64,000 nt of DNA from Bacteroidales bacterium. Lineage in GTDB: Bacteria > Bacteroidota > Bacteroidia > Bacteroidales > UBA12077. The stretch is taken from NCBI GenBank assembly GCA_028282785.1, contig JANQHE010000061.1, positions 195,170 through 259,169 on the forward strand, read 5' to 3'. Under the pieces are notes generated by a model. That model did no database searches. It was not told where the DNA came from and worked only from the letters and a program-made list of their open reading frames with translations. Positions 36,312 through 58,882 of the stretch are shown here, in pieces. Made by a program: the position numbers and the translations under genes. How positions within the stretch are numbered: position 1 is the stretch's first letter; every line of letters starts with the position of its first letter.

Positions 36312-37016
36312 TTATACAAACTTTTCTCGTTTCTGTAAATTAATTAATGCCCAAAGTAGAGAAATTACCGACCCGACAATTAACATTAAACGGTTCTGGC
36401 TTAAAATATTTTTCCAAACGGTTAAGCTAATATCACTTGGAACGTCAAAAGGGTTTAAGAATATGTTCCATTTACTGCTTCTTAAAGGTTCGTGCATAAT
36501 CCAAAATACCAGTCCTATGATAATCATTATTACTGCTGCACCGCTGGCATTTTTAACAAGGGTTGCAAATAAAAAAGACAAACAAGATAAAAATATTAAG
36601 GGATACATTACTTCATAAACCATTTTTAAAACCGGGATCCGAAGTACTGCAAATACTGTAAACCATGACATGGCAAATAAAATTATAACAGCCATTGCCA
36701 TACTAATTACGAAACGGATCAAATAGACTTTATAACGGTAATTTGGCACACCAAATACAATTTCTAACATCCTGGCATCTTTATCATTCTGTACATTAAA
36801 AATTACAGGATAAAATATTATTAATAAGCCGGGGAAAAGAATCACACCGTAAATATCATGTTCGGCAATTGATGCATTTTGAAATAGCATGATACCTATA
36901 ATGATTAAAAAGAATGCAATTGCTGCAATCAGGAAGTAAATGAACTTATTTGCAAATACAATCCTTAAATTGTATATCAAAATATCATATGCGAGTTTTA
37001 TTCGGTTCGATCTCAT
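36312..37016 (-). CDS. ABC-2-type membrane permease (6 TM helices)
   Basis: 234 aa and hydrophobic. Its start codon overlaps the stop of the RND-ABC fusion (TAATG), implying translational coupling. Confidence 0.65.
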   Translation of the reverse strand: MRSNRIKLAYDILIYNLRIVFANKFIYFLIAAIAFFLIIIGIMLFQNASIAEHDIYGVILFPGLLIIFYPVIFNVQNDKDARMLEIVFGVPNYRYKVYLIRFVISMAMAVIILFAMSWFTVFAVLRIPVLKMVYEVMYPLIFLSCLSFLFATLVKNASGAAVIMIIIGLVFWIMHEPLRSSKWNIFLNPFDVPSDISLTVWKNILSQNRLMLIVGSVISLLWALINLQKREKFV

Positions 37017-40000
37017 TACTTAACCATTTTTTCTTTAGTTAATAAATACAAATAGGCATCTTCCAGGTTAGCCTTTACAGGCTTTGCTTCCGGAGCTGGA
37101 ATTTTATCAGACAGGCAGCGGCAACGGATCATTTCACCATCTTTCATATGATGAATTATCGTAAATTCATCTTTTAATTTTTCGAACTTATCTTCCGTTA
37201 CATTTAGCATCCATACTTTTTCTTCTGCTAATTTCGCCATTTTTATAGGAGCTCCAAGGTATTTAACTTCTCCTTTTTTCATTACGGCAACCATATTACA
37301 CGAACTTGCTACATCTTCAATAATGTGAGTTGAGAAGATCACGATACGTTCACGGCTGAGTTCTACTAATAAATTCCTAAAACGGATCCGCTCGCGTGGG
37401 TCCAATCCGGCAGTTGGTTCATCTACGACAAGGATTTTTGGTAAATGAAGAAGAATCTGTGCAATCCCGATTCTCTGTTTCATTCCACCCGAGAAAGAGC
37501 CAATTTTTTCATCTTTATTATCATACATATGAACAGCATTCAAAACATACTCAACACGTTTTATCCTTTCTTCCTGGTTATAAAGTTTCTTTAAAATTCC
37601 CATATAATTAAGGAAGTCCCACGCAGTCATGTTTTCATACATTCCAAATTCCTGTGGAAGGTATCCGATCAAGCCTTGCAATTCTTCGCGTTTCTCTCGT
37701 ACATCGATATCGTTAATGGTAATTTGCCCATAACTTTGTTCAAGAATACCGCAAATGATCCTCATAAGCGTAGATTTCCCTGCACCATTTGGCCCCAGCA
37801 AGCCAAACATTCCGTTTTTAATATCAACAGATACTCCTTTAAGTGCTTTAAATGGTACTTTCTTTTTGCCTATTACAGGAATAACCAAAACAAATTTATA
37901 GAACCCCTTTCTTAATCCTTTAAATTTACCTTTTAAGCGGTTTACGTCAACCTTTTTCCTGTACAGGTTGTCAGATGTAACTTTTATAAGCACTAGGAAA
38001 TACCATAAGGCACCCATTGGGATTACTAAGCCTAATAACTCATACTTTTTAAAGAAAAGGAAAAGAGCAAGAGCAGGAAAGGCCCAAAAAAATAACCGGG
38101 ATACGAAAAGTATCAACAAGCTTAAAAGTTTGAATTTCTTTTCTGATTTTAGATTTCGTGCATATTTTTCAACTGGCACAAAGAAATAAGCAGTTAAAAT
38201 GTAAAGGAAAATTGGAAGTATAAAATACCAGAGTCCACTTTCAAGATGGAAATAGATGAAATACACAATAAATCCTATCAATGGAATTTGCCAGATAAGT
38301 TGGCTAAAGTCTTTGATAGTTGTGAATTCATGCTCAATTCCTAACCTTTTTCGGATATTAACTCCGGATTTCCATTCACGCACGAAACGGCTATCCCAGT
38401 CGTATATCTTTACAAGATTTCTAACCTTTATATGTAATGAGTCATCTTCACCAATAAGTTTTTCCGAGGCTTTTCTTAAACTATTTTGTATAAAATAAAT
38501 GGTAGCAGGAACGATTATGATCAACCCGATAAAATCGATAATTTGCCATACTCTTCGGTCAACTTCGGTAAATATAAAGTAGCTAACCGTTACCCAAATT
38601 GCAATTTGTATGATTTTGATATATAACTTCTGGCTTTGCATCCATTTTAGGGATGATTGTAAGCCGGAATTCAGAGTTGGAATAAAAACCAATGTAAGCA
38701 ATGTACTTACAGTTAAGCCTCCGATAATAGTTATTGCAAATGGAACTCCAATTAAAGTAACATATTCGGCTTTGCCAAGCGCTAATGGAATTAGTGCAAT
38801 AATCGTAGTTATAGCTGTGATAAGAATCGGGCGCACACGCGCTAAGCCTGCCATCATTAACGCACGAGATTCGGAATAGCCCCTTCGGCGAAGTACCCTG
38901 GAATAATCAATGAGGATAATTCCATTATTGACGACAATACCAAGCAGTATCAATAACCCGGTTAACACATTTGTATTTAACAAGGATGTTCCGGTTAGTA
39001 TCAATAATACCAGTGAACCAATTGCAGCCATCGGAATGGAGAACATCATTACAACAGGAGTGGAGAATGATTCGAAAACAGATGATAAAATCATGTAGAT
39101 GAGTATAAATGCCATGAGTAACAGAAATGCGAATTCTCCCAGTTCATTTTCATCGTGCACAACCTCCAAAGCAATTCCTGATGAAAGGGTCATTCCTTCA
39201 ACTAACTCATCAATCTCTAATCGTGCAGCTTCGAGCAAATCTTTTTCATCCTGAACTTCATTAATGAATTGATAAATTACTTCAAGTTGTTTTTCCTGGT
39301 TGGTTCTTTTTATAGCAGATAACCCTTCGGTAAAATTAAATTTGCTTATTTCCTGCATTTCAAATTGAGAACCCTGGTTTCCTCTAACATTTAAGGTTTT
39401 TAGTTCTTTTACATTTCGTTCTTTTTGAGTATTATAACCCACTGTTTTTATAAGGATATCATATTCTTCGGTTCCTTGTTTGAACGTTACTCCACTTGAG
39501 AATTCGTGCTGGAAAGAATTTAATTCGGAAAGTACCGATGCAACCGGGATATCATATAATGCCATGAGCTGCTTATCAAAATTAAGCATTAACTCGGGAC
39601 GTTTATCAGGAACCCGAATATCGATATTTTCGACAGATGTAAGTTGACCCAGGTAATATTTAACATCATTTGCCTGGTTGAGCATTTTATCAAAATCCTG
39701 CCCTTTAATGATTACTTTTTCGCGTTGTGCTCCAATTCCCAGCATTCTTCCAAATTCATCATCATCATAACTATCTCCGCCAAAACGTCCACTGGCCGGA
39801 GGATCCCAGCTGAATTCCGCCGGGCTGAGTTCTTCAAGCCTCTCTATGATCTCATTTTTAATTTTGGGGATCGAGAAATTCCGGATTTTTTTATAATCAT
39901 CAACTAAAAATATGGTAAGCGTAGCTTCTTCTTCATAGATCTGGCTGAGAACATCTTTCTTTTCATCTAAATCTTCCAGTTTCTTTTCAGCTTCTGCAAC

Positions 40001-41725
40001 CAGAATATCGGTATTTTCCAATGTTGTTCCACTTGGCATGGTAACATAAAGGGTAACATCTTTTATTTCTGCCTCTTGGGTCGAAATAATGCTAACTCCC
40101 AAACTTATTAAAAGTGCTGCAAAAAATATGATCAAAGCACCAAGAATTGTCCTTCCGGGCTTACGCATACAGGTTTTAAGAAGCACCAGGTAAATTTGAA
40201 TTAACCTGTTATGAAGCGATATTCTTTCGAACCGGATTGGTTTATCCTGTTTTCTAAATTTTAAGAATGCATGTGTGATCATAGGTATTAACAACAAGGC
40301 AACTACCAAAGAAACAAGCAAGGTTGAAATGATAGAAACTCCGATATGCTTTCCAATTAAACCAATAAAGAAATCCGTTGAAAATACAAATGGCAGAAAA
40401 ACAGTTACGGTTGTTAAAGTTGCTGCAAAAATAGATCGCCATACTTCTTTAGTTCCTTGAATAACCGCCTGATCAGGGTGAACCTTTTTAGCTGCAAGCC
40501 GATAAATATTTTCCAAAACAACGACACTATTATCTAACAACATTCCTATGGCCAGGGCCATCCCCAGAAGTGTTAAACTGTTAATGGTTATTCCGGCAGC
40601 ATAAAAGAAATTAAAAGCTGTATAAACTGATATTGGAATAGCCAGAGCAATGGCAACAACCAGCCTGAAATTCTTTAAAAAGATCCAAAGGATGAAAATA
40701 GCAAGTAAGCCTCCGAGAAGTGCCAGTTGAATAATAGAATCAATGTTCTTTTCCATGGTATCAGCGTCATTTCGTTGAATTACAAGCTCAATATCTTTTG
40801 TTTCAAATTCCTTATTCAGCTCTTTAATTTGGCCTTTCACCGCATTTGAGAGTGCTATTATATTAGCTTGTGAATCCTTTGTAATTGCTATGGTAACAGC
40901 TTCTTTTCCATTAACCCGGCTGTAAGAATCTTGCTCTTTTACTCCATAATGGATTTCAGCAATATCCTTTAATCTAATTTTACCTTGTTTTTTTACCACA
41001 ACATTATGAATATCCTGAATATCATCAAATTCAGAAATTACATTCACAAAGTGCAATTGGTTGTTGTTTGTTACCTTACCTGCAAAGGTCCTTGATTTAC
41101 TATTGTTACTTAATGCGGTCCTGACATCAGCAGGGGAAATCCCGTAACTATCACAAATATCCTGGTGTAATAGAACTTCTATCGATTTTTCCCTTCCTCC
41201 GAATACTTCTGCATTGGCAATTCCATCAATATTTTTTATTTTATTGATGATTTCCTGGTCAGTAATTTGTCTTACCCGGTCGATACCTCCGCCACCTCTA
41301 ACCTGGAGGGTCATAAACATGTTGTTTAATTGCTCAAGGTCGAATTTGAAAGTTTGAACCTGGAATTCTTCAGGCAATGTAGTTTTTACTTCATCTATTT
41401 TCTCAACCAATTTGAGGTAGGCAAACTTTAGATCGGTGTTTTTTTCGTAAGAAATCTGAATGGACCCCGATTGTTGCCCTGCAGTTGATTCAATCTTTTC
41501 AATTCCCTTTAGCGTTCCAATTGCACCTTCCAAGGGTATAATAGCCTGGTTTTCCATGTATTTTGGATCAACTTCCAGAGGCGAAGCAACCTGGACAAAT
41601 AGCATGGGGAATGTTGCATTTGGGTAAAGTTCAACAGCGAGCTGCTTATAGGATATATAACCAAGCATGGTTAATCCTGTAAACAACATGGCAATGAGTA
41701 CTTTTCTTTTTATAATGAAATTCAT
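37016..41725 (-). CDS. RND (AcrB-type) efflux permease fused to extra TM helices and an ABC ATPase domain
   Basis: A single 1569-aa ORF. Residues 1 to ~1018 are RND (paralog of 42254..45337). Residues 1287-1569 carry Walker A GPNGAGKST, signature FSGGMKQR, Walker B ILVVDEPTAGLD and an H-loop STH, and are a paralog of 52139..53029. Confidence 0.8.
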   Translation of the reverse strand: MNFIIKRKVLIAMLFTGLTMLGYISYKQLAVELYPNATFPMLFVQVASPLEVDPKYMENQAIIPLEGAIGTLKGIEKIESTAGQQSGSIQISYEKNTDLKFAYLKLVEKIDEVKTTLPEEFQVQTFKFDLEQLNNMFMTLQVRGGGGIDRVRQITDQEIINKIKNIDGIANAEVFGGREKSIEVLLHQDICDSYGISPADVRTALSNNSKSRTFAGKVTNNNQLHFVNVISEFDDIQDIHNVVVKKQGKIRLKDIAEIHYGVKEQDSYSRVNGKEAVTIAITKDSQANIIALSNAVKGQIKELNKEFETKDIELVIQRNDADTMEKNIDSIIQLALLGGLLAIFILWIFLKNFRLVVAIALAIPISVYTAFNFFYAAGITINSLTLLGMALAIGMLLDNSVVVLENIYRLAAKKVHPDQAVIQGTKEVWRSIFAATLTTVTVFLPFVFSTDFFIGLIGKHIGVSIISTLLVSLVVALLLIPMITHAFLKFRKQDKPIRFERISLHNRLIQIYLVLLKTCMRKPGRTILGALIIFFAALLISLGVSIISTQEAEIKDVTLYVTMPSGTTLENTDILVAEAEKKLEDLDEKKDVLSQIYEEEATLTIFLVDDYKKIRNFSIPKIKNEIIERLEELSPAEFSWDPPASGRFGGDSYDDDEFGRMLGIGAQREKVIIKGQDFDKMLNQANDVKYYLGQLTSVENIDIRVPDKRPELMLNFDKQLMALYDIPVASVLSELNSFQHEFSSGVTFKQGTEEYDILIKTVGYNTQKERNVKELKTLNVRGNQGSQFEMQEISKFNFTEGLSAIKRTNQEKQLEVIYQFINEVQDEKDLLEAARLEIDELVEGMTLSSGIALEVVHDENELGEFAFLLLMAFILIYMILSSVFESFSTPVVMMFSIPMAAIGSLVLLILTGTSLLNTNVLTGLLILLGIVVNNGIILIDYSRVLRRRGYSESRALMMAGLARVRPILITAITTIIALIPLALGKAEYVTLIGVPFAITIIGGLTVSTLLTLVFIPTLNSGLQSSLKWMQSQKLYIKIIQIAIWVTVSYFIFTEVDRRVWQIIDFIGLIIIVPATIYFIQNSLRKASEKLIGEDDSLHIKVRNLVKIYDWDSRFVREWKSGVNIRKRLGIEHEFTTIKDFSQLIWQIPLIGFIVYFIYFHLESGLWYFILPIFLYILTAYFFVPVEKYARNLKSEKKFKLLSLLILFVSRLFFWAFPALALFLFFKKYELLGLVIPMGALWYFLVLIKVTSDNLYRKKVDVNRLKGKFKGLRKGFYKFVLVIPVIGKKKVPFKALKGVSVDIKNGMFGLLGPNGAGKSTLMRIICGILEQSYGQITINDIDVREKREELQGLIGYLPQEFGMYENMTAWDFLNYMGILKKLYNQEERIKRVEYVLNAVHMYDNKDEKIGSFSGGMKQRIGIAQILLHLPKILVVDEPTAGLDPRERIRFRNLLVELSRERIVIFSTHIIEDVASSCNMVAVMKKGEVKYLGAPIKMAKLAEEKVWMLNVTEDKFEKLKDEFTIIHHMKDGEMIRCRCLSDKIPAPEAKPVKANLEDAYLYLLTKEKMVK

Positions 41726-41734
41726 TTTTTAATT

Positions 41735-41785
41735 TTCTCGCAGAGCCGCAAACCTGCCTGCCGTGAGGCAGGGACGCAAAGCTCT
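41735..41785 (-). repeat. Family-A flanking repeat, downstream copy
   Basis: cgcaaacctgcctgccgtgaggcagggacgcaaag. A 34-nt core is shared with 42213..42253, with 3 mismatches. It contains a 6-bp hairpin (cctgcc/ggcagg) with a tetraloop. Confidence 0.8.
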
Positions 41786-41787
41786 TA

Positions 41788-42165
41788 TTATAAATTATTC
41801 ACTATTCTTTTAATTCCATCTTTAATGAGTTTTTCATTAAAGTTTATTAATAAACCTAATTTTAATCCTGTAATTCTTAAGTAGGTTAATAATTGCTTGG
41901 GGTGAACAGGGGCAATTATTTCAACTGATTTTAGTTCTATTATTACTTTGTTTTCTACAACTAAATCAGCTCTAAAACCTATTTCCATTTTTCTATCCTT
42001 CCATATAACAGGAATTGCTTTTTGCCTCTCAACTTTTAAGCCTTGTTCTAATAATTCGTAATACAATATTTCTTCATAAACAGATTCTAATAAACCTGGT
42101 CCGAGCTGTACATGAATATTGTAACAGGTATTAATGATTATTTTTGAGAGTTCGTTTTCTGTCAT
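41788..42165 (-). CDS. GxxExxY family protein (PD-(D/E)XK-like small protein)
   Basis: 125 aa with the motif GPGLLESVY, plus ...DLVVENKVIIELK.... Confidence 0.8.
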   Translation of the reverse strand: MTENELSKIIINTCYNIHVQLGPGLLESVYEEILYYELLEQGLKVERQKAIPVIWKDRKMEIGFRADLVVENKVIIELKSVEIIAPVHPKQLLTYLRITGLKLGLLINFNEKLIKDGIKRIVNNL

Positions 42166-42212
42166 CGTTCTGGTTTTTCTTTGCGCCTTAGCTTTGTGAG
42201 ATTTTTATTTTT

Positions 42213-42253
42213 CACGCAAACCTGCCTGCCGACAGGCAGGGACGCCAAGAATA
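42213..42253 (-). repeat. Family-A flanking repeat, upstream copy
   Basis: cgcaaacctgcctgccgacaggcagggacgccaag, immediately after the stop of the RND gene. Confidence 0.8.
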
Positions 42254-45200
42254 TTAATTTTTATTAAATATCTTAATTTTTAAGCTATCAAATACATAAT
42301 ATACGCAAGGAATAACAACTAATGTTAGCAGGGTGGAAGTTACCAATCCTGCAATTACGGCAATTGCCATTGGTGAGCGTAAAGCTGCACTTTCACCGAT
42401 TCCAAATGTTAGTGGCAAGAGGGCTAAGATTGTTGTTAAACTTGTCATCATAATAGGGCGAATTCTGTTTTCACCGGCATTTATAATGGATTCTTTCAGT
42501 GATAATCCTTGTACTTTAAACTGATTTATAGCATCGACCAGAATAATGGAATCGTTTACGGCAATACCGGCAAGCATAATAATACCAATGTATGCCATAA
42601 TACTTAATGATTTTCCCAGGATAAGGAATGCCCAGATTGCTCCAACTCCTGCCAAAGGAATGGTTAATAAAATAGTAAGTGGGTGAATCATTGATTCAAA
42701 CTGGGACGCCATTACCATATAAACTAATATAATTGAAAGAATCAAAGCAAAACTCAAGCTTGACATTGCCTCCTGGCGTTTTTGTTCTTCGCCAACTATA
42801 CTAATTTGGTATTCCTGTGGTATATCAAGAGTGGCTATTTGTTCCCTTACACTTTCAACAGCCTGGTCAAATGGAACCGAGCGGTCAATATCTGCCATTA
42901 CTTTCCCAATTCTGTTCTGGTTTCTACGGAAAAGTTGCTTTGGCGAAGTAGATTTCTTTATAGTTGCCAACTCATACAATGGAACATTGTTATTACCATT
43001 TTTAAGAGTAATCGAATTGAATTCTGACAAACTCAGTTCAGGCAATTTTACGGTAATGTCGTTCATTTCGCCATCCTTTTCATACTTGCCTGCATCTTTT
43101 CCCATTAAAAGGTCCTTAAGCTGATTAATTATATCTTCAACACTCATATTGTAAATACCGGCTTTATAGCGGTCAATAACAACATCAATCTCCGGTGCGC
43201 CTTCTTCAATATTTGTTTTTATGTTAAGAAGTGCAGGAATTTCCTGAAGTTTAGCTTTTATTTCTGTTGATACCTGATCCAAAACAACCAAGTCTTTTCC
43301 TTTTACTTCTACCACTAGTGGAGCGTCATCAGTACCCATTATTGATTGCAAAGCGGTTTCATCTCTTATGATAGAGATTTCTGCGTCAGGAATTGTTCCC
43401 ATTAATTCTTCAACCGAAGAAATAATATATTGCGACTGCTCCAGATATTCATCTTTTAAGTGAATTTTTATGGTAGCTGTATTTTCATTTTGGAAAACCG
43501 ATTTTTCATTGGTTGAAGTACTTGAAGGGCCGATCTGGCTATAAACTATATTTAGTTTATCACCAAGCATTTCATTTAACATCGCTTCAATATTAGCAAC
43601 GGCCCCGGATGTCCTTTCCAGTTCGGTTCCTTCTTTAAGTTTTATTTCGATGCTAAATTCGCCGGCTCCACTTTTTGGAAGGTATTCTGATCCAACATAA
43701 GGAAAGATGTAAACCGTTAATGCTAATAAAAGAGTAGCAAAAACAATTACAAGCCCTTTTTTATCAAGGATCTTAGATAACAAATTACCATACCACCCAA
43801 TACGGACTGACTTGATTTTATTTTCTTTTTTGTGTTTTCTATATGCAAAATTGAAAAGCATTGGAATAACCAGAATTGCAACAAATAGTGATGCCAGCAA
43901 TGAGAATGCAACAGTCCAGGCCTGGTCTTTAAATAGTGCACCAGAAGCTCCATGCAAATAAACTATTGGCAAGAATACTACAATTGTGGTTAAGGTTGAA
44001 GCGACAATAGCACCACCAACTTCCGCAGTTCCGTGAATTGCAGCTTCTCGAACAGACATTCCCTGTTCCATATTCCGGAAGATATTTTCCATTACCACGA
44101 TTGCATTGTCAACCAGCATACCAGCCCCTAGGGCAAGCCCACCAAGGGTCATTATGTTTAAAGTGAGCCCATTAAAATACATTAAGTTGAAGGTAGCAAT
44201 AACTGAAATAGGTATTGCGAAACTGATGATCGCTGTTACCTTTAACCTTCTTAAGAAAATGAAAAGTACAAATACAGCTATTAAAATTCCTATTAATGCG
44301 GTTTCTTGTACTTCATCAATAGCAGTTTGAATAAATTTTCCCTGGTTTTGAACGATAATAAATTCATATCCGGGCAATGCTTTTTGAATAGATTCAAAAG
44401 ATTTAATTAAATCTTCAACCGCTTTTACAGTATTGAAACCGGTTTCTTTGTATATCGAAAGCCCAACGCATCGTTCACCATTAATTCGAACAACATTTTG
44501 AGGATCCTTATTCGTAAAACTTACGTTAGCAACATCTTTTAAGAAAATAGGGGTTTTTAAAACAGCATCCTGGTTTTGAGTTCCGTTTACCAGCTTATAG
44601 CTTAAAACTATATTCTCAATATCTTCAACTCTGCCTACAAGGCTTGAACCTTTAATGATATATTTTTTACCCATTTCAACAATAGTACCTCCGGAAACAT
44701 TTCTGTTCATGTTCTGGATTTCCTGTACAATCTGCCCTGTAGTTAAACCATAGGCATCTAATTTATATTGCTCGGTTTCAATCAATACTTCTTTTTCTTC
44801 GGTACCAGTAAGCGATACATCGGCAATGCCTTCTAACCTGATTAGTTCATTACGAATATAATTTTCACCAACTTTCCTCAACTCGTCCATGTCGGTAATC
44901 TCCGGATGTTTCATTCCTATGATCATTACCGGTGTCGCGTTAGGGTCGTGCTGTGTGATGGTGAATTCGTCGATATCCGAATTTTGGCTATATGCCGTTA
45001 GTGCTTTTTGAAGGTCCAAAAATGCTTCATCCATATCAGTTCCCCAGTTATACTCTACCGTTACCCGGGCAGAACCAACCATACATACTGAGGAAACCTG
45101 TGATACACCTTTTTGGCGAATAGATTGTGCTTCTATATCTTCTATAAACTGCTTTTCTAATTCTTCCGGTGGGCGTTCTCCTGCCTTAATTTCGACAAAT

Positions 45201-45337
45201 ATTCTGGGGGCATTCATATCGGGAAACAGGTCAACACTTAACCTTCCGAATGAAATGTATCCCAATAGAATAATTGCAATAACAATCATCGAAACCGTTA
45301 CAGGGTTATTAACCGAAAATTGTGTAATTTTTTTCAT
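42254..45337 (-). CDS. RND (AcrB/HAE1-type) efflux permease
   Basis: 1027 aa with the typical 12-TM/two-loop layout and motifs (GLALGAGMLVDNAIVVMENI, AGIAVNDSIILVD). Confidence 0.92.
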   Translation of the reverse strand: MKKITQFSVNNPVTVSMIVIAIILLGYISFGRLSVDLFPDMNAPRIFVEIKAGERPPEELEKQFIEDIEAQSIRQKGVSQVSSVCMVGSARVTVEYNWGTDMDEAFLDLQKALTAYSQNSDIDEFTITQHDPNATPVMIIGMKHPEITDMDELRKVGENYIRNELIRLEGIADVSLTGTEEKEVLIETEQYKLDAYGLTTGQIVQEIQNMNRNVSGGTIVEMGKKYIIKGSSLVGRVEDIENIVLSYKLVNGTQNQDAVLKTPIFLKDVANVSFTNKDPQNVVRINGERCVGLSIYKETGFNTVKAVEDLIKSFESIQKALPGYEFIIVQNQGKFIQTAIDEVQETALIGILIAVFVLFIFLRRLKVTAIISFAIPISVIATFNLMYFNGLTLNIMTLGGLALGAGMLVDNAIVVMENIFRNMEQGMSVREAAIHGTAEVGGAIVASTLTTIVVFLPIVYLHGASGALFKDQAWTVAFSLLASLFVAILVIPMLFNFAYRKHKKENKIKSVRIGWYGNLLSKILDKKGLVIVFATLLLALTVYIFPYVGSEYLPKSGAGEFSIEIKLKEGTELERTSGAVANIEAMLNEMLGDKLNIVYSQIGPSSTSTNEKSVFQNENTATIKIHLKDEYLEQSQYIISSVEELMGTIPDAEISIIRDETALQSIMGTDDAPLVVEVKGKDLVVLDQVSTEIKAKLQEIPALLNIKTNIEEGAPEIDVVIDRYKAGIYNMSVEDIINQLKDLLMGKDAGKYEKDGEMNDITVKLPELSLSEFNSITLKNGNNNVPLYELATIKKSTSPKQLFRRNQNRIGKVMADIDRSVPFDQAVESVREQIATLDIPQEYQISIVGEEQKRQEAMSSLSFALILSIILVYMVMASQFESMIHPLTILLTIPLAGVGAIWAFLILGKSLSIMAYIGIIMLAGIAVNDSIILVDAINQFKVQGLSLKESIINAGENRIRPIMMTSLTTILALLPLTFGIGESAALRSPMAIAVIAGLVTSTLLTLVVIPCVYYVFDSLKIKIFNKN

Positions 45338-45435
45338 AATTGTAAATTTCTCTCAAAGACACAATCCTGATAGTTATCGGGAGGCAAAGAATATTTAATT
45401 TTCACTATTTTTCTCATTTCTTCGTTTATTGCCAT
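45334..45435 (-). pseudogene. Deletion scar of a third GxxExxY cassette (33-codon residual ORF)
   Basis: The 5' region and first codons (ttcgtttattgccatcgtg; MAINEEMRKIV) parallel those of 41788..42165 (ttcgttttctgtcatcgtt; MTENELSKII). They run straight into a family-A-like element (45347..45393). The stop overlaps the RND ATG (ATGA). Confidence 0.5.
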
Positions 45436-45477
45436 CGTGATTAATATTCTTTTGTCTTTGTACTTTAATCTTTTATC

Positions 45478-46527
45478 TTACTTGATAACTTTAACTTTTG
45501 AGCGGTTGCGAAGTGTTTCGAATCCTTTTATAACTAAACGATCGTTTTTCTCCAAGCCAGAGATTATTTGTACTTCATCAGGATTTTCTAACCCGAAAGT
45601 TACAATACGTTCCTGAGCTAATCCTTTATCAACCACAAATACGGTACTTCCTCTTTGTTTAGCGAGAATCACATCTTTAGGTATTACGATTGTACTATCA
45701 ACCGATGCTACTATGATTTCGCCTTTTGCAAACATTCCCGGACGCAATAATAAACCGGAATTAGAAACGTCAATAACCGTTTTAAATGATCTGGTATCTG
45801 CATCAATAGCCGGAGATATTTGGGCTACTTTTCCAACCAATGTATCTTCAGGAATGGTGTAATTCGTAATTTTTACTTTTTGCCCAACTTTTACAAAACT
45901 TAGGTCCTTTTCCGCCAGGCTAATTTCCATATATAATTTACTATAATCCATTAACTTAAACATTAGTGAATTGGCAACAACTCTTGTACCCGGTGTGTAA
46001 TATGGCAAATCTACTATTACACCTGAAAAAGGGGCCTTAATATGCATCTTTTCCAAACGGATTAGGGCATCTTTATAACTATAATCGGCATTTATATAAT
46101 TAATTTCTGCATTTTTAAGTTCACTCAAAGTAACTCCACCTTTTTCGTAAAGAGATTGTTGTTTTTCGAAAGTTTGTTTCGTGATCTCTAGGTTTAGCTT
46201 TAATGAAAGAATCTTGATGTTATTTTCATATTCATCATCCTTCAAATAGATAATTTTATCGCCTTCATTAACCTTATCGCCTAAAGCATATTTTTTACCG
46301 GTAGTTGGATTGATCATAAGGTTATATTCACCGGCAATTTCGGATTTAAAGTTTATTTCTTTTACCGGATTAACTGTACCGGTAGTTTCAATAAATTTTT
46401 CAATTGACTGTAGTTTCAAATCCTGTACTGAAACCGGAACAGATATATCTTTATTTAAATCCTTTTCTTCGTTATTACACGATGCAAACATGATGATTGC
46501 GGCTAAGATTATAACTATTTTTCTCAT
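45478..46527 (-). CDS. Efflux membrane fusion protein (HlyD/AcrA family), lipoprotein
   Basis: Lipobox MFASC after the Met at 46527 (preferred over the track start at 46581), then coiled-coil and beta-barrel regions typical of MFPs. Confidence 0.85.
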   Translation of the reverse strand: MRKIVIILAAIIMFASCNNEEKDLNKDISVPVSVQDLKLQSIEKFIETTGTVNPVKEINFKSEIAGEYNLMINPTTGKKYALGDKVNEGDKIIYLKDDEYENNIKILSLKLNLEITKQTFEKQQSLYEKGGVTLSELKNAEINYINADYSYKDALIRLEKMHIKAPFSGVIVDLPYYTPGTRVVANSLMFKLMDYSKLYMEISLAEKDLSFVKVGQKVKITNYTIPEDTLVGKVAQISPAIDADTRSFKTVIDVSNSGLLLRPGMFAKGEIIVASVDSTIVIPKDVILAKQRGSTVFVVDKGLAQERIVTFGLENPDEVQIISGLEKNDRLVIKGFETLRNRSKVKVIK

Positions 46528-46552
46528 TGTGTATTTAATTTTTATTGTTTTC

Positions 46553-46610
46553 TTTTTTTGAACGCAGATGCCACGGATCAATATATTGAGCGCGGATAAC
46601 CGCTGATTTT
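46553..46610 (-). repeat. Family-B flanking repeat, downstream copy
   Basis: tgaacgcagatgccacggatcaatatattgagcgcggataaccgctgatttt. It has 5 mismatches over 52 nt against 47021..47080. Confidence 0.85.
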
Positions 46611-47010
46611 AACTATTTATCGCTTTAATATTTTTTCTTTTATTTTCAAATACTTTTCTTACAAATTCAGGCTTTTTGCCAAAATTTAGAAGTAAACCAA
46701 CTTCTTTGTCAGTTGCTCGTAAGTAGTTTAATAATTGCCATTCAAACTCTTCAACAATATATTCTGTAGCTTTTAGTTCAAGAATTATCAAATCATTTAC
46801 AACCAAATCTGCATAATATTCGCCTACTTCGACTCCCTTGTAATGTACTTTTATCTGTTTTTGAGCTTCTACATCAAAACCTTGATTTTTGAGTTCTAAA
46901 TACAGTGAATTTTGGTATACTTTTTCAAGAAATCCATATCCTAATTCATTGTAAACATTGTAAAATGTTTTAAGAATTTTATCAGTCAGTTCTTTATGTA
47001 TTAGGTTCAT
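46609..47010 (-). CDS. GxxExxY family protein (second paralog)
   Basis: Motif GYGFLEKVY, plus ...DLVVNDLIILELK.... The ATG at 47010 is preferred over the track start at 47037. Confidence 0.8.
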   Translation of the reverse strand: MNLIHKELTDKILKTFYNVYNELGYGFLEKVYQNSLYLELKNQGFDVEAQKQIKVHYKGVEVGEYYADLVVNDLIILELKATEYIVEEFEWQLLNYLRATDKEVGLLLNFGKKPEFVRKVFENKRKNIKAINS

Positions 47011-47020
47011 TACTTTTATA

Positions 47021-47080
47021 TTTTTTTTTGAATGCAAATGCCGCGGATCAATAAATTGAACGCGGATAACCGCTGATTTT
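47021..47080 (-). repeat. Family-B flanking repeat, upstream copy
   Basis: tgaatgcaaatgccgcggatcaataaattgaacgcggataaccgctgatttt, 10 nt upstream of the GxxExxY start codon. Confidence 0.85.
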
Positions 47081-47155
47081 TATCGTCCTGATTTTACATT
47101 TTGTTTTATATGTTGTGTTCATCTTATTTTCTAATCTGTTTGATTATCGTTCTAA

Positions 47156-48679
47156 TTAATTCGTATCGGATGATCTTATATTGTTTTGTAATTCCTGCGG
47201 AACAAATGATCTTCCATTTTCAAAATCCCAGAGCGATTGTATTTTCATGTTAAGCAACTCCAGTTTATAGTTTATGAGAGCATTTGCCAGATTCATTTTT
47301 TTCTGAGATAACTGGTTTTGGTACCTTTCCAGGTCGATACTGGTTAGATCTCCATTTTTGTACCTCTCCAGGTTTATATCATATGTTAATTGTGCATTTT
47401 TTTCGTTTTGTTCGGCAATTTTAATTTGCGAGTTTAAATTTTGAAGGTTTCTGAACACCTGCCTGATATTGATAACAATATTATCTTCTAAGGTTTTCAG
47501 GTCTAGTTCTCTGGATTCAATTGCAAGCTCTGCAGCACGTATTCTGGCTTTTCTTTCACCCCAGTCGAATACCGGAATGGAGAATGTAATTCCGACTTGA
47601 GGGCTTCGCGTAGGTTTTTCATAAACATTTGCAAAGTCTTCATTATTACCCATAATTCCAACCGAAAGATCCACATCACCTCTAAATTCATTTGTAGCAG
47701 AAGTTTCGATTAAGTCAAACTGAGCATTGTTCAAATCAATTTTTCTTTGTGATATTTCTAATCTTTGAGATAGCCCATTTTCTATAGCCTTTTCTAAATC
47801 AACAATAACGGGAGTATATTGTATATCTGTTTCAATTTCTACTTCCTCATATAATGAAATACCTATTAAACGCTTGAATTGGTCTTTTGAATTTTCTAGA
47901 TCAACCTTTGCATTTTCAAGGTTTGACTGGCTGGTTGCATAGTTCAATTCGCCTTGTAATAATTCCTCCTGTGCTGATAACCCTGCTTCAACTTTACTTT
48001 TTATAATTTCAAAACTTATTTTCTGGTTTTCAAATTCTTCTTCAGCAATTTGAACAGCCATTTGTTTTTGGTAAATTGCATAAAAAGCCTGGGTTACTTG
48101 CTGTTCAATACTAAGCATTTGGATTGAATAGGAGAGCGTAGCATTTTCAAGAGACAATTGCTGTCTTTCCAAATTCATTTTGGTTTTATTATATGTAAAT
48201 AAAGGTTGATTATAGCTTAAATATAAATTATTATTAAATCCCTCGTAGGTATTCGTAGTTTTTGTCGGGTTTAACGGATCAGTGAAATTATCAAACGTTT
48301 CAGTTGAGGTTGATTTATATTCGAAATCATTTCTTAATGATAAAGTACCATCTGTCCATTTAATAGGTTGTGAAATGACCAATCCGGCATTTGATAGTGT
48401 ATTTTCTGATGTGTACCACTGTGAATAATATTCGTCGTAAGTTTCACTATTTGAATACCGAATCGGTGTAACATTCAATGAAAAATGAGATTTAAGCATG
48501 GCCAATTGGGCATTTAAATACTCCCGGTTTTGTTCCATGGTTAGCCTGGATTGCTTAATATCAGGGCTATTTTCGAGAGCTGTACTCATGGCATCCTTAA
48601 GGGTTAATACCATTTGGCCTTTTGTTATCAAACCACTTATTATTAGTGTGCTTGTTATAAATATTTTTATTCTTAACAT
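47156..48679 (-). CDS. TolC-like outer membrane efflux protein
   Basis: 507 aa with a signal peptide and two repeats of the OEP pattern (LTLKDAMSTALENSPDIKQ...; coiled-coil rich). Confidence 0.85.
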   Translation of the reverse strand: MLRIKIFITSTLIISGLITKGQMVLTLKDAMSTALENSPDIKQSRLTMEQNREYLNAQLAMLKSHFSLNVTPIRYSNSETYDEYYSQWYTSENTLSNAGLVISQPIKWTDGTLSLRNDFEYKSTSTETFDNFTDPLNPTKTTNTYEGFNNNLYLSYNQPLFTYNKTKMNLERQQLSLENATLSYSIQMLSIEQQVTQAFYAIYQKQMAVQIAEEEFENQKISFEIIKSKVEAGLSAQEELLQGELNYATSQSNLENAKVDLENSKDQFKRLIGISLYEEVEIETDIQYTPVIVDLEKAIENGLSQRLEISQRKIDLNNAQFDLIETSATNEFRGDVDLSVGIMGNNEDFANVYEKPTRSPQVGITFSIPVFDWGERKARIRAAELAIESRELDLKTLEDNIVINIRQVFRNLQNLNSQIKIAEQNEKNAQLTYDINLERYKNGDLTSIDLERYQNQLSQKKMNLANALINYKLELLNMKIQSLWDFENGRSFVPQELQNNIRSSDTN

Positions 48680-48724
48680 ATTTATTTATTTAATCATTTT
48701 ATATTTTACTATTTGTTTTAAACA

Positions 48725-48770
48725 CTGACAGGCCTTTCTAACCCAGAATCCAACTCACAGGCTCTGTCAG
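48725..48770. other. Intergenic hairpin between the ABC module and the TolC-like gene
   Basis: ctgacaggcc / ggc(t)ctgtcag: a 10-bp stem with one bulge and a 25-nt loop. Confidence 0.5.
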
Positions 48771-48779
48771 GTTTTGCAT

Positions 48780-51700
48780 TTAATCGTTTTTAACCCATTT
48801 TATAGCATCTGAAAAAATCATTTTACTTACTGATTTATTTGTTTGTTCAACTTTTGCATTTTCCGGTGATATGTAAAAAGTTCCCATGTAGTTCCATCCG
48901 GCATCCAGTTCCTCATCCATCAACGTGATTTCTTCAACTCCATCATTATTGTGAATTTTAAAGTTATAGCTAGGTTTACGTTTATCACGGTTCCATTCGA
49001 TATTTATTTTTGCAATATGACAATAAAGATCATAATACCCGGCTTCATCTAATTCGGGAACCCATTCGGTGGTCCTTTCGTTTTCTCCTGACCTGGTGTA
49101 CATTGCGGAGCGTATATATTTTCCATAAAATCCGGTTCTTAAGACAGGTTTCCAAACAGGTGGTGGATTCCAGAAATGTAGTCCTGAATATTTATAACGA
49201 TCTTCTTTGTTTTTATTGATCAATACTTTTAAATAACTTTCATTTGATTCCTGAAAAACTTCAAACTTTGGGTCTTCATTATCAACTATAAATTCATTTT
49301 CATTGGCTAAATCAGTAAATAATGGATATTTTTTTATACCATCAAAAACCGGTATTTTTTTAAGTTCGTCAAATCCTGAAAATTCATAGATCAAATTATT
49401 GGGAAGGTTCTCGGATATATTAGTGAAGATATTCATTCGAGTGGGTTCTGTGGGAAATAATACTCCATACTCAATAGCCGATTCTGCCGGAAGAAATATT
49501 TTCTTAGAATAATCAGGTTGTTCCGGCCCATCATCTGAAAAGCTTCGTACATTGCTTTTATCATCCAAATCGATGGTCATGGTAATGATACCATCAATTT
49601 TCTCAGGGTTAGCTATTTTGCACCGAACCTGGTATTTTGTATACTCTCCGTCGAGTACTTTGTAGGTTTCCAAATCTTTAATTAAAAATCCAGGCATTTC
49701 TGTTTTGGTATACCAGTCTTCTATTTCACTACCAATCGGATCATTGAAAGTTTGTGATATTATGCTTTCTAATTCTTCAAACGGGAATGACTGATGATAG
49801 TTTGATGTAATTAACCGGTTAATTATATTGTTGAAATTTTCATCACCATAACGTGCCCTGAAAAGTGAGAATAAATAATCACCCTTTGCCAGGATGATAT
49901 CATTTATGGTCAGCTGGTCATCGTCATCATCCAGGCTTTCATCTTTTTCAACACCTGTTTTGATAAGATCTTCCAAACCGGATTCCATTAATTCCAGGTT
50001 GATTTTTTCTCCTTCACTAATTCCCCTCCAGAACCAACGGTATGATGAAACATTGTTTACATTTCGTTCTCGTAGATAAACTTCGAGTGCCAGATTCAGA
50101 ATTGGAAATTCTTCCGATTCTATTTGTGTAACTTGGCTGAAATAATGTGGAATTAAGCTGTAAGTGTATTTGTCAACAACATTTTCGAACTGGTACCATT
50201 CGGTTGGTGGTGCCATTAAGTTTCCTCTTACAAACCGTTTAAATATTCGGCACTGAAGCTCTTCCGGAGAAACTTCTTCGTTGTTTTCTTTCATTCGTTC
50301 TTCGAAACGGTTCTTACGTTTTACGAAGTCTGTTTCTTCCATGATTACACCTTTTTCCGGGTATAATATTATTTCCGGTTGCACAGCATCGCTTGTTACT
50401 GACCAGATGTGCTTATCTAAAGCAAAATGAATAGGAATTTCAACAAGTGAAAATCGGTTAAATCCATATTTTAGGTTAAGCAATGTTTCGTATTCATCTC
50501 TCAGTTCACGTATGATAGCTGGCATTGTATCCTTAAATTCAGTGAAATGCTCCAAATAAAAATCATTGCCTTTGGTTGAATAGATACTGTATTCAACAGA
50601 ATCAACCGTGATAGAATATTTATCGTATTCTGCAATAGTTAAACTAATTTTTGGCAGGGCATAATCATTTATAAAAGTAAAAGTCCCATTTTCGTGGTTT
50701 GTTGCATTACCCTGAGATACAGCAAGCAAATCAGGAAAGGTTTTAACGGTTAACTCAAATTGAGTAAAATCTTCTTTAAAATAAGCTGGTTTATTGGGTG
50801 CATATGTCACTCCGGCCTTTGGATACCACAATGATTCACTGGTTAAGCATACAAAGTCTTCCTGAATATATGCAAAACGTTTTTGAGCTTTAAAAATTTC
50901 AAGAGCAAAATTATCTTCATATTTTTCAGGTTGCTGATCTAAAAAGCATATATTTTCATTTATAGTACCGTGGTAATTAATTTCTATTTTGAGATTTTGC
51001 TCAGGTTTTAAACCTTGATTGTATTTGATCTTAATTAAATGTTTTTCTCTTTCGAATTGAGTTGGTACAGTGCCAACTTTTATTTCATTGATTTTTAAAT
51101 CAGGATTTAAACTGAACAATATAGTTTCGATGTTTTTCTCTGAATTATTAAAAACATTCATTAGACATTTAACATTTATTTCATTCCCAAGATGTTCTAA
51201 TTCAATATTGCAAGCATCAATTTGCACTACAGGTTCGTTTGAATACTTATTATTGATTGCAATAAATTCTTCTTTTTGCTTTAAAACATCCTTCTTTAGG
51301 TTTACATAAAAAAATCCAAAATAAACTCCAAGGGCAAGAAACATAAGAGCCAACGATAATGGAAAAATTCCCGAAGATTTAGATTGAGGGAGCCTGTTTA
51401 GTTTAAATACGGTAAACAATATTAGCCCAATTCCTATAAAAAAATATATCCCACGATGAACAGTTATTGCAGCCAGATCTCCAAAGCCGGCAATCATAGA
51501 ATTCATCATTGGAATTTTAAAGGCTATATAATCAAAAAGGTGGTAAAACTTCTCATCTAAATAAAAAATGGTAACCGCTATATAACCAAGCAGTATTATA
51601 AATGTAATTGCCTGGTTTTTTAGAAGTGTCATTAACAAAAATGAAAGCCCCAGAATAAAAACTAGTGTCGGAATACTTATTAAAAGAGGGTATAGAAAGA

Positions 51701-52136
51701 ATTCCCCAATTCCTTTAGCAGAGTCAGCACTTAGGAAAGAGAATCCGATTCCCATTATTAAAAGGATCAGGTTTAAAATGATAAATACCGATAATATTCC
51801 TAATGTTTTACCTAATATATATTGCCCGTTGGTCATTGACCTTGCATAGATAACCTCAACGGTATCATTTTTCCGGTCTTGTTTTAAGAACTCCGAAGCA
51901 AGAAATACAGCCACTATTGCCTGACCTAAATTTAAAATTATGAGGTTGGCATATGGAATGGCTGCCGGCAAAGCTCTGTACAACCATGGAGCACCGCTTT
52001 TTTCAACAAAAACTGCAACATTGAAAATACCTAACCCAATAATATAAAGCCCTGCAAAAATCCTAAAGAACCAACTTCGAAGCAAGGTTTTCATTTCGAA
52101 TTGTGAAACAATTCTTATGGTTTGAATTGAACTCAT
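48780..52136 (-). CDS. ABC-2-type permease fused to a large (~830 aa) extracytoplasmic domain that may be a catalytically dead M1-aminopeptidase-like domain
   Basis: The N-terminal ~280 aa is multi-TM. The rest is soluble. There is no HExxH anywhere in the protein. CRIFKRFVRGNLMAP sits where an M1 HELAHQWFGNLVT motif would be expected (by-eye alignment only). Confidence 0.6.
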   Translation of the reverse strand: MSSIQTIRIVSQFEMKTLLRSWFFRIFAGLYIIGLGIFNVAVFVEKSGAPWLYRALPAAIPYANLIILNLGQAIVAVFLASEFLKQDRKNDTVEVIYARSMTNGQYILGKTLGILSVFIILNLILLIMGIGFSFLSADSAKGIGEFFLYPLLISIPTLVFILGLSFLLMTLLKNQAITFIILLGYIAVTIFYLDEKFYHLFDYIAFKIPMMNSMIAGFGDLAAITVHRGIYFFIGIGLILFTVFKLNRLPQSKSSGIFPLSLALMFLALGVYFGFFYVNLKKDVLKQKEEFIAINNKYSNEPVVQIDACNIELEHLGNEINVKCLMNVFNNSEKNIETILFSLNPDLKINEIKVGTVPTQFEREKHLIKIKYNQGLKPEQNLKIEINYHGTINENICFLDQQPEKYEDNFALEIFKAQKRFAYIQEDFVCLTSESLWYPKAGVTYAPNKPAYFKEDFTQFELTVKTFPDLLAVSQGNATNHENGTFTFINDYALPKISLTIAEYDKYSITVDSVEYSIYSTKGNDFYLEHFTEFKDTMPAIIRELRDEYETLLNLKYGFNRFSLVEIPIHFALDKHIWSVTSDAVQPEIILYPEKGVIMEETDFVKRKNRFEERMKENNEEVSPEELQCRIFKRFVRGNLMAPPTEWYQFENVVDKYTYSLIPHYFSQVTQIESEEFPILNLALEVYLRERNVNNVSSYRWFWRGISEGEKINLELMESGLEDLIKTGVEKDESLDDDDDQLTINDIILAKGDYLFSLFRARYGDENFNNIINRLITSNYHQSFPFEELESIISQTFNDPIGSEIEDWYTKTEMPGFLIKDLETYKVLDGEYTKYQVRCKIANPEKIDGIITMTIDLDDKSNVRSFSDDGPEQPDYSKKIFLPAESAIEYGVLFPTEPTRMNIFTNISENLPNNLIYEFSGFDELKKIPVFDGIKKYPLFTDLANENEFIVDNEDPKFEVFQESNESYLKVLINKNKEDRYKYSGLHFWNPPPVWKPVLRTGFYGKYIRSAMYTRSGENERTTEWVPELDEAGYYDLYCHIAKINIEWNRDKRKPSYNFKIHNNDGVEEITLMDEELDAGWNYMGTFYISPENAKVEQTNKSVSKMIFSDAIKWVKND

Positions 52137-52138
52137 AG

Positions 52139-53029
52139 TTAAAAGCTGTTTTTGTTGGTTAAGTATTCCATAAAATAAACATAGGCATGTTCGAGGTTGG
52201 GTTCAATTTCAACTTTGTTTTTAACATCCAGTTTATCGCCGACCAATTGAACTTCCCAACCATCTTCTGCCGGTATAGTGGAAATTATGGCATATTTTTC
52301 TTTAAGCATTTCGTATTCAAAGCCAGAAGTTGTAACCTGCCAAACGTGGCCTTTTGTTTTATTAATTAACTCTTCCGGCGAACCTTTAAATCCTACTTCA
52401 CCTTTGTTTAAAAGAGCCAGATCTTTACAAACGCTGGAAATATCTCCAACTATATGTGTTGACAGAATAATGATCACATCTTTTTGACTTAATTCCGACA
52501 GTATATTTCTAAAACGAATTCGTTCTTCAGGATCTAATCCTGTTGTTGGTTCATCAACTATTATAATTTGAGGATCGCCTATGAGTGCCTGTGCAATTCC
52601 AAGCCTTCTTTTCATACCTCCGGAAAGCTTGTTAGCGCTCCGGTCACGAACATCAAATAAGCCAACTTTATCCAGCCATTCATCAACTTTTTCAGATCGT
52701 TCTTTTTTATTGCTAATCCCGGATAATCCGGCAGCATAACTAAGAAATTCCCATGTTTTTAGTTTTGTGAAAAAGCGAAAGTCTTGCGGTAGGTAACCTA
52801 ACATTCTGCGTATTTCTCCCCTGTTTTTTTGTAGGTCAAAGCCATTTACGCTTACTACTCCATCGGTTGGTTTCATTAAGGTTACTAATATTCTCATCAG
52901 ACTGGATTTACCTGCTCCATTTGGCCCCAATAAGCCAAACATACCATTCTCTATTTCGAGGTTTACATTGAAAAGGGCACGTTTGCCATTTTTATATATT
53001 TTATCAAGATTTTCTATTCGAATTTTCAT
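52139..53029 (-). CDS. ABC transporter ATP-binding protein (ABC-2/CcmA-like, with a C-terminal accessory domain)
   Basis: Walker A GPNGAGKSS, signature LSGGMKRR, Walker B IIIVDEPTTGLD. Its stop lies 2 nt before the permease start. Confidence 0.92.
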   Translation of the reverse strand: MKIRIENLDKIYKNGKRALFNVNLEIENGMFGLLGPNGAGKSSLMRILVTLMKPTDGVVSVNGFDLQKNRGEIRRMLGYLPQDFRFFTKLKTWEFLSYAAGLSGISNKKERSEKVDEWLDKVGLFDVRDRSANKLSGGMKRRLGIAQALIGDPQIIIVDEPTTGLDPEERIRFRNILSELSQKDVIIILSTHIVGDISSVCKDLALLNKGEVGFKGSPEELINKTKGHVWQVTTSGFEYEMLKEKYAIISTIPAEDGWEVQLVGDKLDVKNKVEIEPNLEHAYVYFMEYLTNKNSF

Positions 53030-58721: not shown

Positions 58722-58882
58722 TTTTATACTCAATTTATTAATCAAAATTATTGTTAATTTAAATAGATACAAAATGGATTGTATGATTTTGGAACATAAG
58801 ATGGATGATTTTGGAGCATTTTTTATATAATGGTAATTAACTTTAATTTATAATATATTGAAAATTAATAATTAAAATATTT

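Follow-up and report, generated by a model that had tools for sequence, protein, structure and literature searches.

We describe a block of genes in a stretch of 64,000 nucleotides (the window) from a Bacteroidales bacterium of the GTDB lineage UBA12077 (assembly GCA_028282785.1, contig JANQHE010000061.1, positions 195,170 to 259,169), in which parts of ATP-binding cassette (ABC) transporters of the ABC-2 type are encoded together with a resistance-nodulation-division (RND) efflux system, and in which one ABC ATPase is joined to an RND permease in a single protein. An earlier note on this DNA, made from the letters alone, had placed seven such genes on the minus strand; an open reading frame (ORF) scan reproduces them at the same coordinates, and Pfam and NCBIfam searches bear out the domains assigned to them. 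In order, they are ATPase1 (52139-53029), a stand-alone nucleotide-binding domain (NBD) with a C-terminal accessory domain (296 amino acids, aa; ABC_tran 2.6e-31); BigPerm (48780-52136), a large ABC-2-like permease of 1118 aa that is recognized by Golvesin_C and, via its orthologs, by ABC2_membrane_2 and Peptidase_M1; a TolC-like outer membrane factor (OMF; 47156-48679, 507 aa; OEP 3e-50); a membrane fusion protein (MFP) or periplasmic adaptor (45478-46527, 349 aa; HlyD_D23 2.5e-23, and TIGR01730 RND_mfp at 183.7 bits, above its cut-off of 94.9); RND1 (42254-45337), a conventional RND permease of 12 transmembrane (TM) helices and 1027 aa (ACR_tran 1.4e-218); the RND-NBD fusion (37016-41725), an ORF of 1569 aa with both ACR_tran (3.1e-159) and ABC_tran (7.1e-30); and SmallPerm (36312-37016), an ABC-2-like permease of 234 aa and six TM helices with a weak match to ABC2_membrane_3. 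The locus holds the defining parts of an RND tripartite system: a full-length ACR_tran permease, an RND_mfp adaptor and an OMF with tandem OEP repeats, the latter seen as three matched stretches totalling 171.1 bits (TIGR01844, 1.6e-29, and TIGR01845 both score under their cut-offs).

According to the earlier note these genes follow one another with only short gaps or overlaps, which holds at most junctions and fails at two, OMF-MFP and RND1-fusion, where the spacer is filled by an ORF of the GxxExxY family (see below). Read off the sequence, 2 nt separate the stop of ATPase1 from the start of BigPerm, and the stop of the fusion overlaps the start of SmallPerm by 1 nt (TAATG), an overlap by which, to judge from the junction itself, SmallPerm is translationally coupled to the fusion. 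The longest ORF of the MFP (45478-46581) opens with TTG, and the ATG at 46527 adopted in the earlier note is the better start: from it the protein reads MRKIVIILAAIIMFASC, a lipoprotein signal, and measures 349 aa, the lengths of its orthologs being 349-356 aa. The MFP is probably a lipoprotein beginning at that ATG. For the fusion, public gene calls put the start 12 codons downstream of that of the longest ORF (41690-41725), giving 1557 rather than 1569 aa. The BigPerm-OMF spacer (48680-48779), which is 100 bp long here and about 20 bp in most relatives, holds an inverted repeat, CCTGACAG...CCTGTCAG. Every ORF of at least 150 aa between 35242 and 58772 lies on the minus strand, in agreement with the earlier statement that all genes from 35242 to 58721 do so.

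The predicted RND-ABC fusion proved real, but it is not a plain join of an RND permease and an NBD: about 255 residues with six TM helices predicted by hydropathy separate RND TM12 from the Walker A motif. The RND domain (aa 1 to about 1030; 38636-41725) is matched by ACR_tran over aa 2-1018 and over model positions 3-1016 at 532.2 bits, as compared to 728.6 bits and positions 1-1020 of 1021 for RND1. It is followed by two extra TM helices past TM12 (aa 1034-1083; 38477-38626), by the short segment IKVRNLVKIY (aa 1099-1108; 38402-38431), by four further TM helices (aa 1143-1251; 37973-38299), and by the rest of the NBD with its C-terminal accessory domain (aa about 1285-1569; 37019-37873; ABC_tran match at aa 1295-1439). 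Both groups of helices are predicted by hydropathy and recur as helices in an AlphaFold2 (AF2) model, with pLDDT 79-89 for the first group and 78-88 for the second. IKVRNLVKIY resembles IRIENLDKIY, residues 3-12 of ATPase1, which represent the first β-strand and the A-loop tyrosine of an NBD; because of this match, and because relatives with a shorter linker have the same β-strand and then, at this position, a soluble stretch of about 50 inserted aa, we read the four helices as having been inserted into the NBD at its β1-β2 hairpin. In an alignment of members 36-69% identical to the window fusion, I1099, L1104, K1106, Y1108, R1113 and W1118 are invariant, and the four-TM insertion is homologous in about 20 representative clusters. 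We know of no other ABC NBD with a membrane insertion between β1 and β2.

An architecture this unusual might simply be an artefact, in which mis-assembly or a lost stop codon joined separate RND and ABC ATPase genes, and in some metagenome-assembled genomes (MAGs; L034, L035 and L061) the gene is indeed split by frameshift. Against this, at least 120 independent database clusters at 68-99% identity carry ACR_tran and ABC_tran in one protein, with lengths of about 1555-1590 aa bar two partial sequences (1356 and 1481 aa), and they include the complete genomes of cultured Marinifilum and Labilibaculum. When the linker and NBD half was searched against 1.84 billion representatives (50% identity level), about 32 representative clusters among the best 150 matches proved to be RND+NBD proteins, their RND identity to the window falling as low as 24%; this depth, together with the invariant linker residues, also speaks against an artefact. 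On these comparisons the artefact reading, to which we attach practically no credence, is already refuted, and the fusion is both real and old.

The RND half of the fusion and RND1 are 28% identical, and the best solved relative of the fused domain is MdtB (9lyq_B, 3.7e-69). Both retain the TM4 Asp and the TM11 RxRP motif, as do plain RNDs of the subfamily. AcrB has Asp-Asp in TM4, a Lys in TM10 and an Arg in TM11, whereas in RND1, in the fusion and in six plain members of this subfamily TM4 has Asp-Asn and TM10 has Asn-Asn or Asn-Asp, with no Lys; the subfamily may, going by these residues, use a proton-coupling chemistry different from the AcrB paradigm. We considered whether the fusion had lost its proton relay in particular, as would be expected of an ATP-driven RND. 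This was ruled out: because the TM4/TM10/TM11 pattern is common to RND1 and to plain RNDs, there is no sign of lost proton coupling in the fused RND.

The two permeases are of very different size. BigPerm consists of a six-TM ABC-2-type membrane domain (aa about 1-290), a periplasmic M1-aminopeptidase-like region (aa about 300-960) and a Golvesin_C or xanthan-lyase-type module (aa about 1004-1115). Golvesin_C is the only Pfam match of the window copy; among 34 aligned orthologs it is found in all 34, with Peptidase_M1 in 17 and ABC2_membrane_2 in 10 (best E 2e-7). A profile search of the PDB returned M1 peptidases as well as a Paenibacillus xanthan lyase (6f2p, 1.5e-9), to whose C-terminal domain the C-terminal module aligns. 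An AF2 model built with database homologs of 52-86% identity reached pLDDT 76.5 and pTM 0.73, and its best Foldseek matches were IRAP, ERAP1 and PepN (E 4e-17 to 5e-15, about 650 columns, probability 1.00). HExxH is nevertheless missing from 84 of 85 BigPerm orthologs, namely from all 51 close ones and from all but one of 34 diverse ones, in which it stands at a non-homologous position, and the window copy has neither the HExxH(+E) zinc-binding motif nor GxMEN. Because of this absence we take the ectodomain to be a catalytically dead M1-like domain, which would serve in binding or as a scaffold. SmallPerm is more difficult to place: its ABC2_membrane_3 match (E=0.003 in the window) is under the gathering score, 4 of 33 orthologs match the same model (best 9.5e-8), and a PDB sequence search with it gave no match.

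Conservation of the locus was assessed from both of its ends. In a forward test, one genome per GTDB species was scanned with an alignment of the RND domain and linker, and the loci were annotated by BLASTP with the window proteins. Of the 79 loci obtained in this way, four are plain RNDs and the other 75 match the fusion. Among 60 loci with a full-length fusion, ATPase, BigPerm, OMF, MFP, RND1, fusion and SmallPerm stand in the same order and on the same strand in 46; the remaining 14 are cut by a contig or flank end or have genes split by frameshift, and no counter-example to the seven-gene order was found among the 60. The order MFP-RND1-fusion is kept in all genome loci, SmallPerm comes after the fusion wherever the downstream sequence is present, and at each of the six junctions the median intergenic gap lies within 11-27 bp. 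In a reverse test, metagenome contigs were scanned with an alignment of BigPerm only, which gave 80 loci of 31-71% identity. Upstream of BigPerm the ATPase was present in 69/69; downstream, the OMF was present in 64/64, OMF and MFP in 49/49 and RND1 in 35/35, and the linker-bearing fusion was reached in 27 of the 28 loci with enough downstream DNA. At every distance reached, the upstream ABC module is, as far as gene order can tell, never apart from the RND set.

The composite same-strand locus proposed in the earlier note is thus upheld by all 46 complete genome loci and by the reverse test: ABC modules and an RND set distributed independently of each other were not seen in relatives, and the opposite was. 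By their shared order the seven genes are a conserved cassette of Bacteroidota and allied phyla and not chance neighbours. The cassette occurs in many families of the Bacteroidales (including Bacteroides, Parabacteroides, Odoribacter, Alistipes and Proteiniphilum), beyond them in Marivirga, Saprospiraceae and Flavilitoribacter, and in MAGs of Calditrichota, Zixibacteria, Krumholzibacteriota, KSB1 and Latescibacterota.

More divergent relatives retain much of this content. Three loci of about 25% RND identity (L163, L165 and L166) keep ATPase, BigPerm, MFP, RND, fusion and SmallPerm and have no OMF gene; by hidden Markov models the big and small permeases of these six-gene variants are homologous to those of the window. 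A further locus (L167, 586-16192), which its neighbouring genes suggest comes from Planctomycetota or Verrucomicrobiota, has the parts in permuted order, namely MFP, ATPase, ABC-2 permease, RND, a BigPerm homolog (E 2.3e-23, with no C-terminal module), RND-NBD fusion and OEP protein. The fusion of this locus and those of L168 and L164 are the short-linker forms, 1423-1458 aa long and without the extra TM helices. In L164 the fusion gene is followed, in the place of the permease, by genes for a diacylglycerol kinase and a GT4 glycosyltransferase.

These relatives bear on whether the locus encodes one transporter or several. It is conceivable that ATPase1 and BigPerm form an ABC-2 transporter separate from the RND tripartite pump, the two being co-regulated in one operon because they serve the same pathway or stress, with only the fused NBD and SmallPerm attached to the pump. 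Operons often do join related but separate transporters, and ATPase1-BigPerm and fusion-SmallPerm each appear translationally coupled, which suggests two sub-modules. However, the parts are co-inherited wherever this could be tested, from either end of the locus, in different phyla, at RND identities as low as about 25% and even in permuted order, which is tighter than is typical of merely co-regulated neighbours. In the permuted locus, moreover, it is the BigPerm homolog that lies beside the fusion and the free ATPase that lies beside the small permease, which argues against two fixed pairs. We regard separate transporters as rather unlikely, with about one chance in a handful or a little better.

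Alternatively, the ABC parts might not transport at all, and the fused NBD, its six helices and SmallPerm might instead act on the RND pump as an ATP-dependent device, be it a gate, an assembly factor or a regulator, that opens or primes it. The NBD is wired directly to RND TM12, the membrane insertion between β1 and β2 could transmit a conformational change, and SmallPerm is only marginally ABC-2-like, all of which would suit such a role. The short-linker fusions, however, keep the NBD without the membrane insertion, the RND domains keep the charged TM residues of plain relatives driven by the proton-motive force (PMF), and there is always a second full ABC set, which has an 830-aa ectodomain and looks like a transporter that handles a substrate. 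We think this alternative improbable.

The earlier note further explained the two ATPases by duplication of one ATPase+permease module to both ends of the RND operon, with fusion of one copy to an RND gene afterwards. The observation on which this was based holds, as ATPase1 and the fused NBD are similar over their whole length (41% identity over 271 aa, C-terminal accessory domain included). Six TM helices are found in each of the two permeases, with a D..E loop and a KN motif at collinear positions. The scenario itself fared less well. In a neighbor-joining (NJ) tree with 40 stand-alone ATPases and 100 bootstraps, the fused NBDs group together in 100/100 and the free cassette ATPases in 98/100, each as a clade of its own, and the two clades are exclusive sisters in 0/100; unrelated stand-alone ATPases are 38-48% identical to each clade, as close as the clades are to each other (39-41%). 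BigPerm and SmallPerm show no detectable homology, since a BLASTP comparison gave E=0.039 over only 31 aa and a profile-profile comparison (hhalign) gave P=0.08, neither of which is significant. Any duplication would predate the whole sampled ABC-2 ATPase subfamily and would not be specific to this locus, and we consider the proposed scenario very improbable.

What the sequences indicate instead is that both NBDs belong to one broad ABC-2-type subfamily. Their best NCBIfam models, drrA and GldA, are both matched under the cut-off: ATPase1 scores 197.6 against 312 for drrA and 188.3 against 402.6 for GldA (TIGR03522), to which the fusion scores 173.9 bits, so that neither protein qualifies as GldA. 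Across 26 orthologs of ATPase1 there is no variation in Walker A, Q-loop, signature, Walker B with its catalytic Glu, or H-loop, and all catalytic motifs of the fused NBD are invariant in 59 orthologs. Neither NBD has a degenerate ATP site, which we looked for because it could point to an obligate heterodimer; both are fully canonical.

The explanation that we favour, and that we rate as somewhat better than an even bet, is that the cassette is one ancient self-contained operon which encodes a single composite exporter spanning the envelope. We take the genes as one functional unit because they are co-inherited in both directions, because their spacing is operon-like, because an RND and an NBD are covalently linked, and because the same parts recur in permuted order. 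The unit would comprise a heteromeric RND pump, in which RND1 and the RND half of the fusion work with a single MFP and a single TolC-like OMF, and an ATP-driven ABC-2-type (type V-like) transporter, made of the fused NBD, the free ATPase, SmallPerm and BigPerm and covalently tethered to the pump. In such a machine the ABC part would, at the cost of ATP, extract or flip a substrate, amphipathic and possibly carrying a glycan, from the cytoplasm or inner leaflet; the ectodomain of BigPerm, with its dead peptidase and carbohydrate-binding-module (CBM)-like domain, would bind or guide the substrate in the periplasm; and the adjacent RND heterotrimer would then expel it by means of the proton gradient via the duct formed by MFP and OMF.

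In its strictest form this proposal is a dual-energy exporter, in which a PMF-driven RND heterotrimer and an ATP-driven ABC-2 heterocomplex constitute one obligate machine and the substrate is handed from ABC to RND for passage through the one MFP/OMF duct; this form we advance tentatively, at somewhat less than an even chance. A composition of two RND1 to one fusion is possible, with the fused NBD pairing with the free ATPase and SmallPerm with BigPerm. We lean toward one four-part ABC heterocomplex rather than two homodimeric modules, because the partners adjoin different neighbours in the permuted locus.

Several observations weigh against the composite exporter. Apart from the covalent tether, contact of the ABC parts with RND, MFP and OMF is presumed, and to our knowledge ABC-2 permeases do not dock MFPs; because of this, the sharing of a channel may amount to feeding the RND. 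An RND trimer and an ABC dimer differ in symmetry, and the stoichiometry given above is accordingly an assumption. The AF2 model of the C-terminal 540 aa of the fusion is poor (pLDDT 68.8, pTM 0.38), too weak in the region of β1 and Walker A to tell whether the displaced β1 returns to the NBD or in what way the six additional helices are packed. Two short-linker fusions do not show the full set: that of L168 (10001-14377) is a distant orphan gene, and that of L164 (2276-6547) has no downstream permease, its upstream side being cut by the contig end. The neighbours gave no clue to the substrate: when flanking ORFs of about 160 loci were clustered, no family outside the cassette proved conserved, which in turn favours a self-contained unit, and the most frequent family, a GntR regulator with its own ABC pair, occurs in 9 of these loci. 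As to the transcript, which would be a single one if the spacing is a guide, a sigma-70 promoter scan with a consensus unsuited to Bacteroidota gave 84 promoter-like sites as against 78 expected from shuffles, and an intrinsic-terminator scan gave 14 terminator-like sites as against 12 expected; neither is an enrichment, and both scans are uninformative. The sole minus-strand terminator-like site falls within BigPerm, the Bacteroidota -7 motif TAnnTTTG is in none of the intergenic spacers, all of which were searched, and an Rfam scan of the whole window gave zero matches.

The two ORFs that interrupt the cassette are both on the minus strand and of the PD-(D/E)XK family. GxxExxY_a (46609-47037; PDDEXK_3 4.9e-39, TIGR04256 1.6e-38) lies in the OMF-MFP spacer and GxxExxY_b (41788-42165; PDDEXK_3 2.8e-41) in the RND1-fusion spacer, and the two are 48% identical. 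The first is flanked by a 24-nt direct repeat (46585-46608 and 47055-47078) that occurs nowhere else in the window, with 0 chance matches expected, and the second by a 31-nt direct repeat with a GC-rich hairpin (41747-41777 and 42215-42245), likewise found nowhere else in the window. From repeat to repeat, the units (41747-42245 and 46585-47078) span about 470 bp each. GxxExxY_a is missing from L001 and L002 and, on this comparison, is outside the conserved cassette. The RND1-fusion spacer also holds a GxxExxY ORF in the unrelated loci L005, L009, L049, L082, L118 and L132, and because the same spacer is occupied in unrelated loci, this suggests a recurrent, cassette-like insertion; a search for exact direct repeats of at least 12 nt around the GxxExxY ORFs of other loci found none.

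Outside the core cassette and upstream of it, genes for a third ABC ATPase (ATPase3), a 261-aa membrane protein and a GntR regulator, as identified by Pfam, lie on the minus strand at 53761-55733. This trio precedes the cassette in about 9 metagenome loci, 5 of which belong to the 27 with the full 10 kb upstream, and it may be a lineage-specific regulator module. Farther upstream on the same strand (56009-58772) are genes for a histidine kinase and a sigma-54-dependent response regulator, a pair that is not conserved beside the cassette elsewhere, and beyond it is a divergently transcribed gene for a MacB-type permease (58928-61300). On the downstream side the ORFs at 35242-36256 are not conserved beside the cassette, and just past the minus-strand block, at the strand switch, lies a gene for a RhuM-family virulence protein (33952-34998, plus strand; 6.5e-114).

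By analogy with known systems, the cassette would work most like MdtABC-TolC combined with an ABC-2 exporter. MdtABC-TolC of E. coli and Salmonella likewise has one MFP gene and, behind it, two divergent RND genes in tandem. The heteromeric assembly of RND pumps is established, the MdtBC heterotrimer being an example (PMC8277102). Orthology to the Mdt permeases is not indicated by the NCBIfam models, as RND1 and the fusion score 410.5 and 291.5 bits with the MdtC model (NF007905, cut-off 1774) and 364 and 258.2 bits with the MdtB model (NF007798, cut-off 1584). Unlike the cassette fusion, MdtC is free of an NBD, of additional TM helices and of obligatory ABC-2 partners, and the cassette subfamily differs from MdtABC in having D-N and not D-D in TM4 and in lacking the TM10 Lys.

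MacAB-TolC also encodes an ABC ATPase with an MFP and a TolC-like OMF, and it also has a large periplasmic domain on the ABC permease. MacB, however, is a type VII ABC transporter that carries its fused NBD at the N-terminus and has FtsX and MacB_PCD domains, whereas the cassette permeases resemble the ABC-2 type and are accompanied by an RND pump; Pfam finds FtsX and MacB_PCD on none of the cassette proteins and finds both on the neighbour at 58928-61300. With the ABC-2 (type V) exporters DrrAB, Wzm-Wzt and GldAFG the cassette compares in its NBDs, which score best with the drrA and GldA models though under their cut-offs, and in its six-TM permeases, some orthologs of which match ABC2_membrane models, and GldF and GldG also pair an ABC-2 permease with a large periplasmic protein. 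In contrast to these exporters, the cassette has one NBD that is fused to an RND and is split by a membrane insertion, a permease with a pseudo-M1 and CBM-like domain, and MFP and RND genes always alongside. The M1 zinc aminopeptidases (PepN, ERAP1, IRAP and tricorn factor F3) share the multi-domain fold predicted for the BigPerm ectodomain; they differ from BigPerm in that the identity is 10-12%, in the HExxH motif that its orthologs lack, and in that BigPerm is joined to an ABC-2 membrane domain.

A full-text literature search for an RND-ABC fusion found no relevant paper, and a comprehensive 2021 review of tripartite systems refers to heterotrimeric MdtBC, while the term "ABC-2" does not occur in its first 300,000 characters. 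In the databases the cassette proteins are named just "efflux RND transporter permease subunit" or "hypothetical protein".

Tripartite efflux systems are classed by their source of energy, RND and major facilitator superfamily (MFS) pumps being driven by the proton gradient and ABC pumps by ATP. If our reading is true, the cassette would provide direct genetic evidence that a primary and a secondary active transporter can be obligate partners, an idea that has come hitherto from the functional cooperation of separate pumps. It would also offer a tractable model of how a substrate passes from the cytoplasm or inner leaflet to an RND pump that captures in the periplasm, and with it two structural oddities worth solving, an NBD whose first strand is, on our reading, split off by four TM helices and an ABC-2-like permease with a dead M1 peptidase. 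For the organisms concerned it represents an uncharacterised envelope system, carried by the gut genera Bacteroides, Parabacteroides, Odoribacter and Alistipes and by many sediment and marine members of the Fibrobacteres-Chlorobi-Bacteroidetes (FCB) group.

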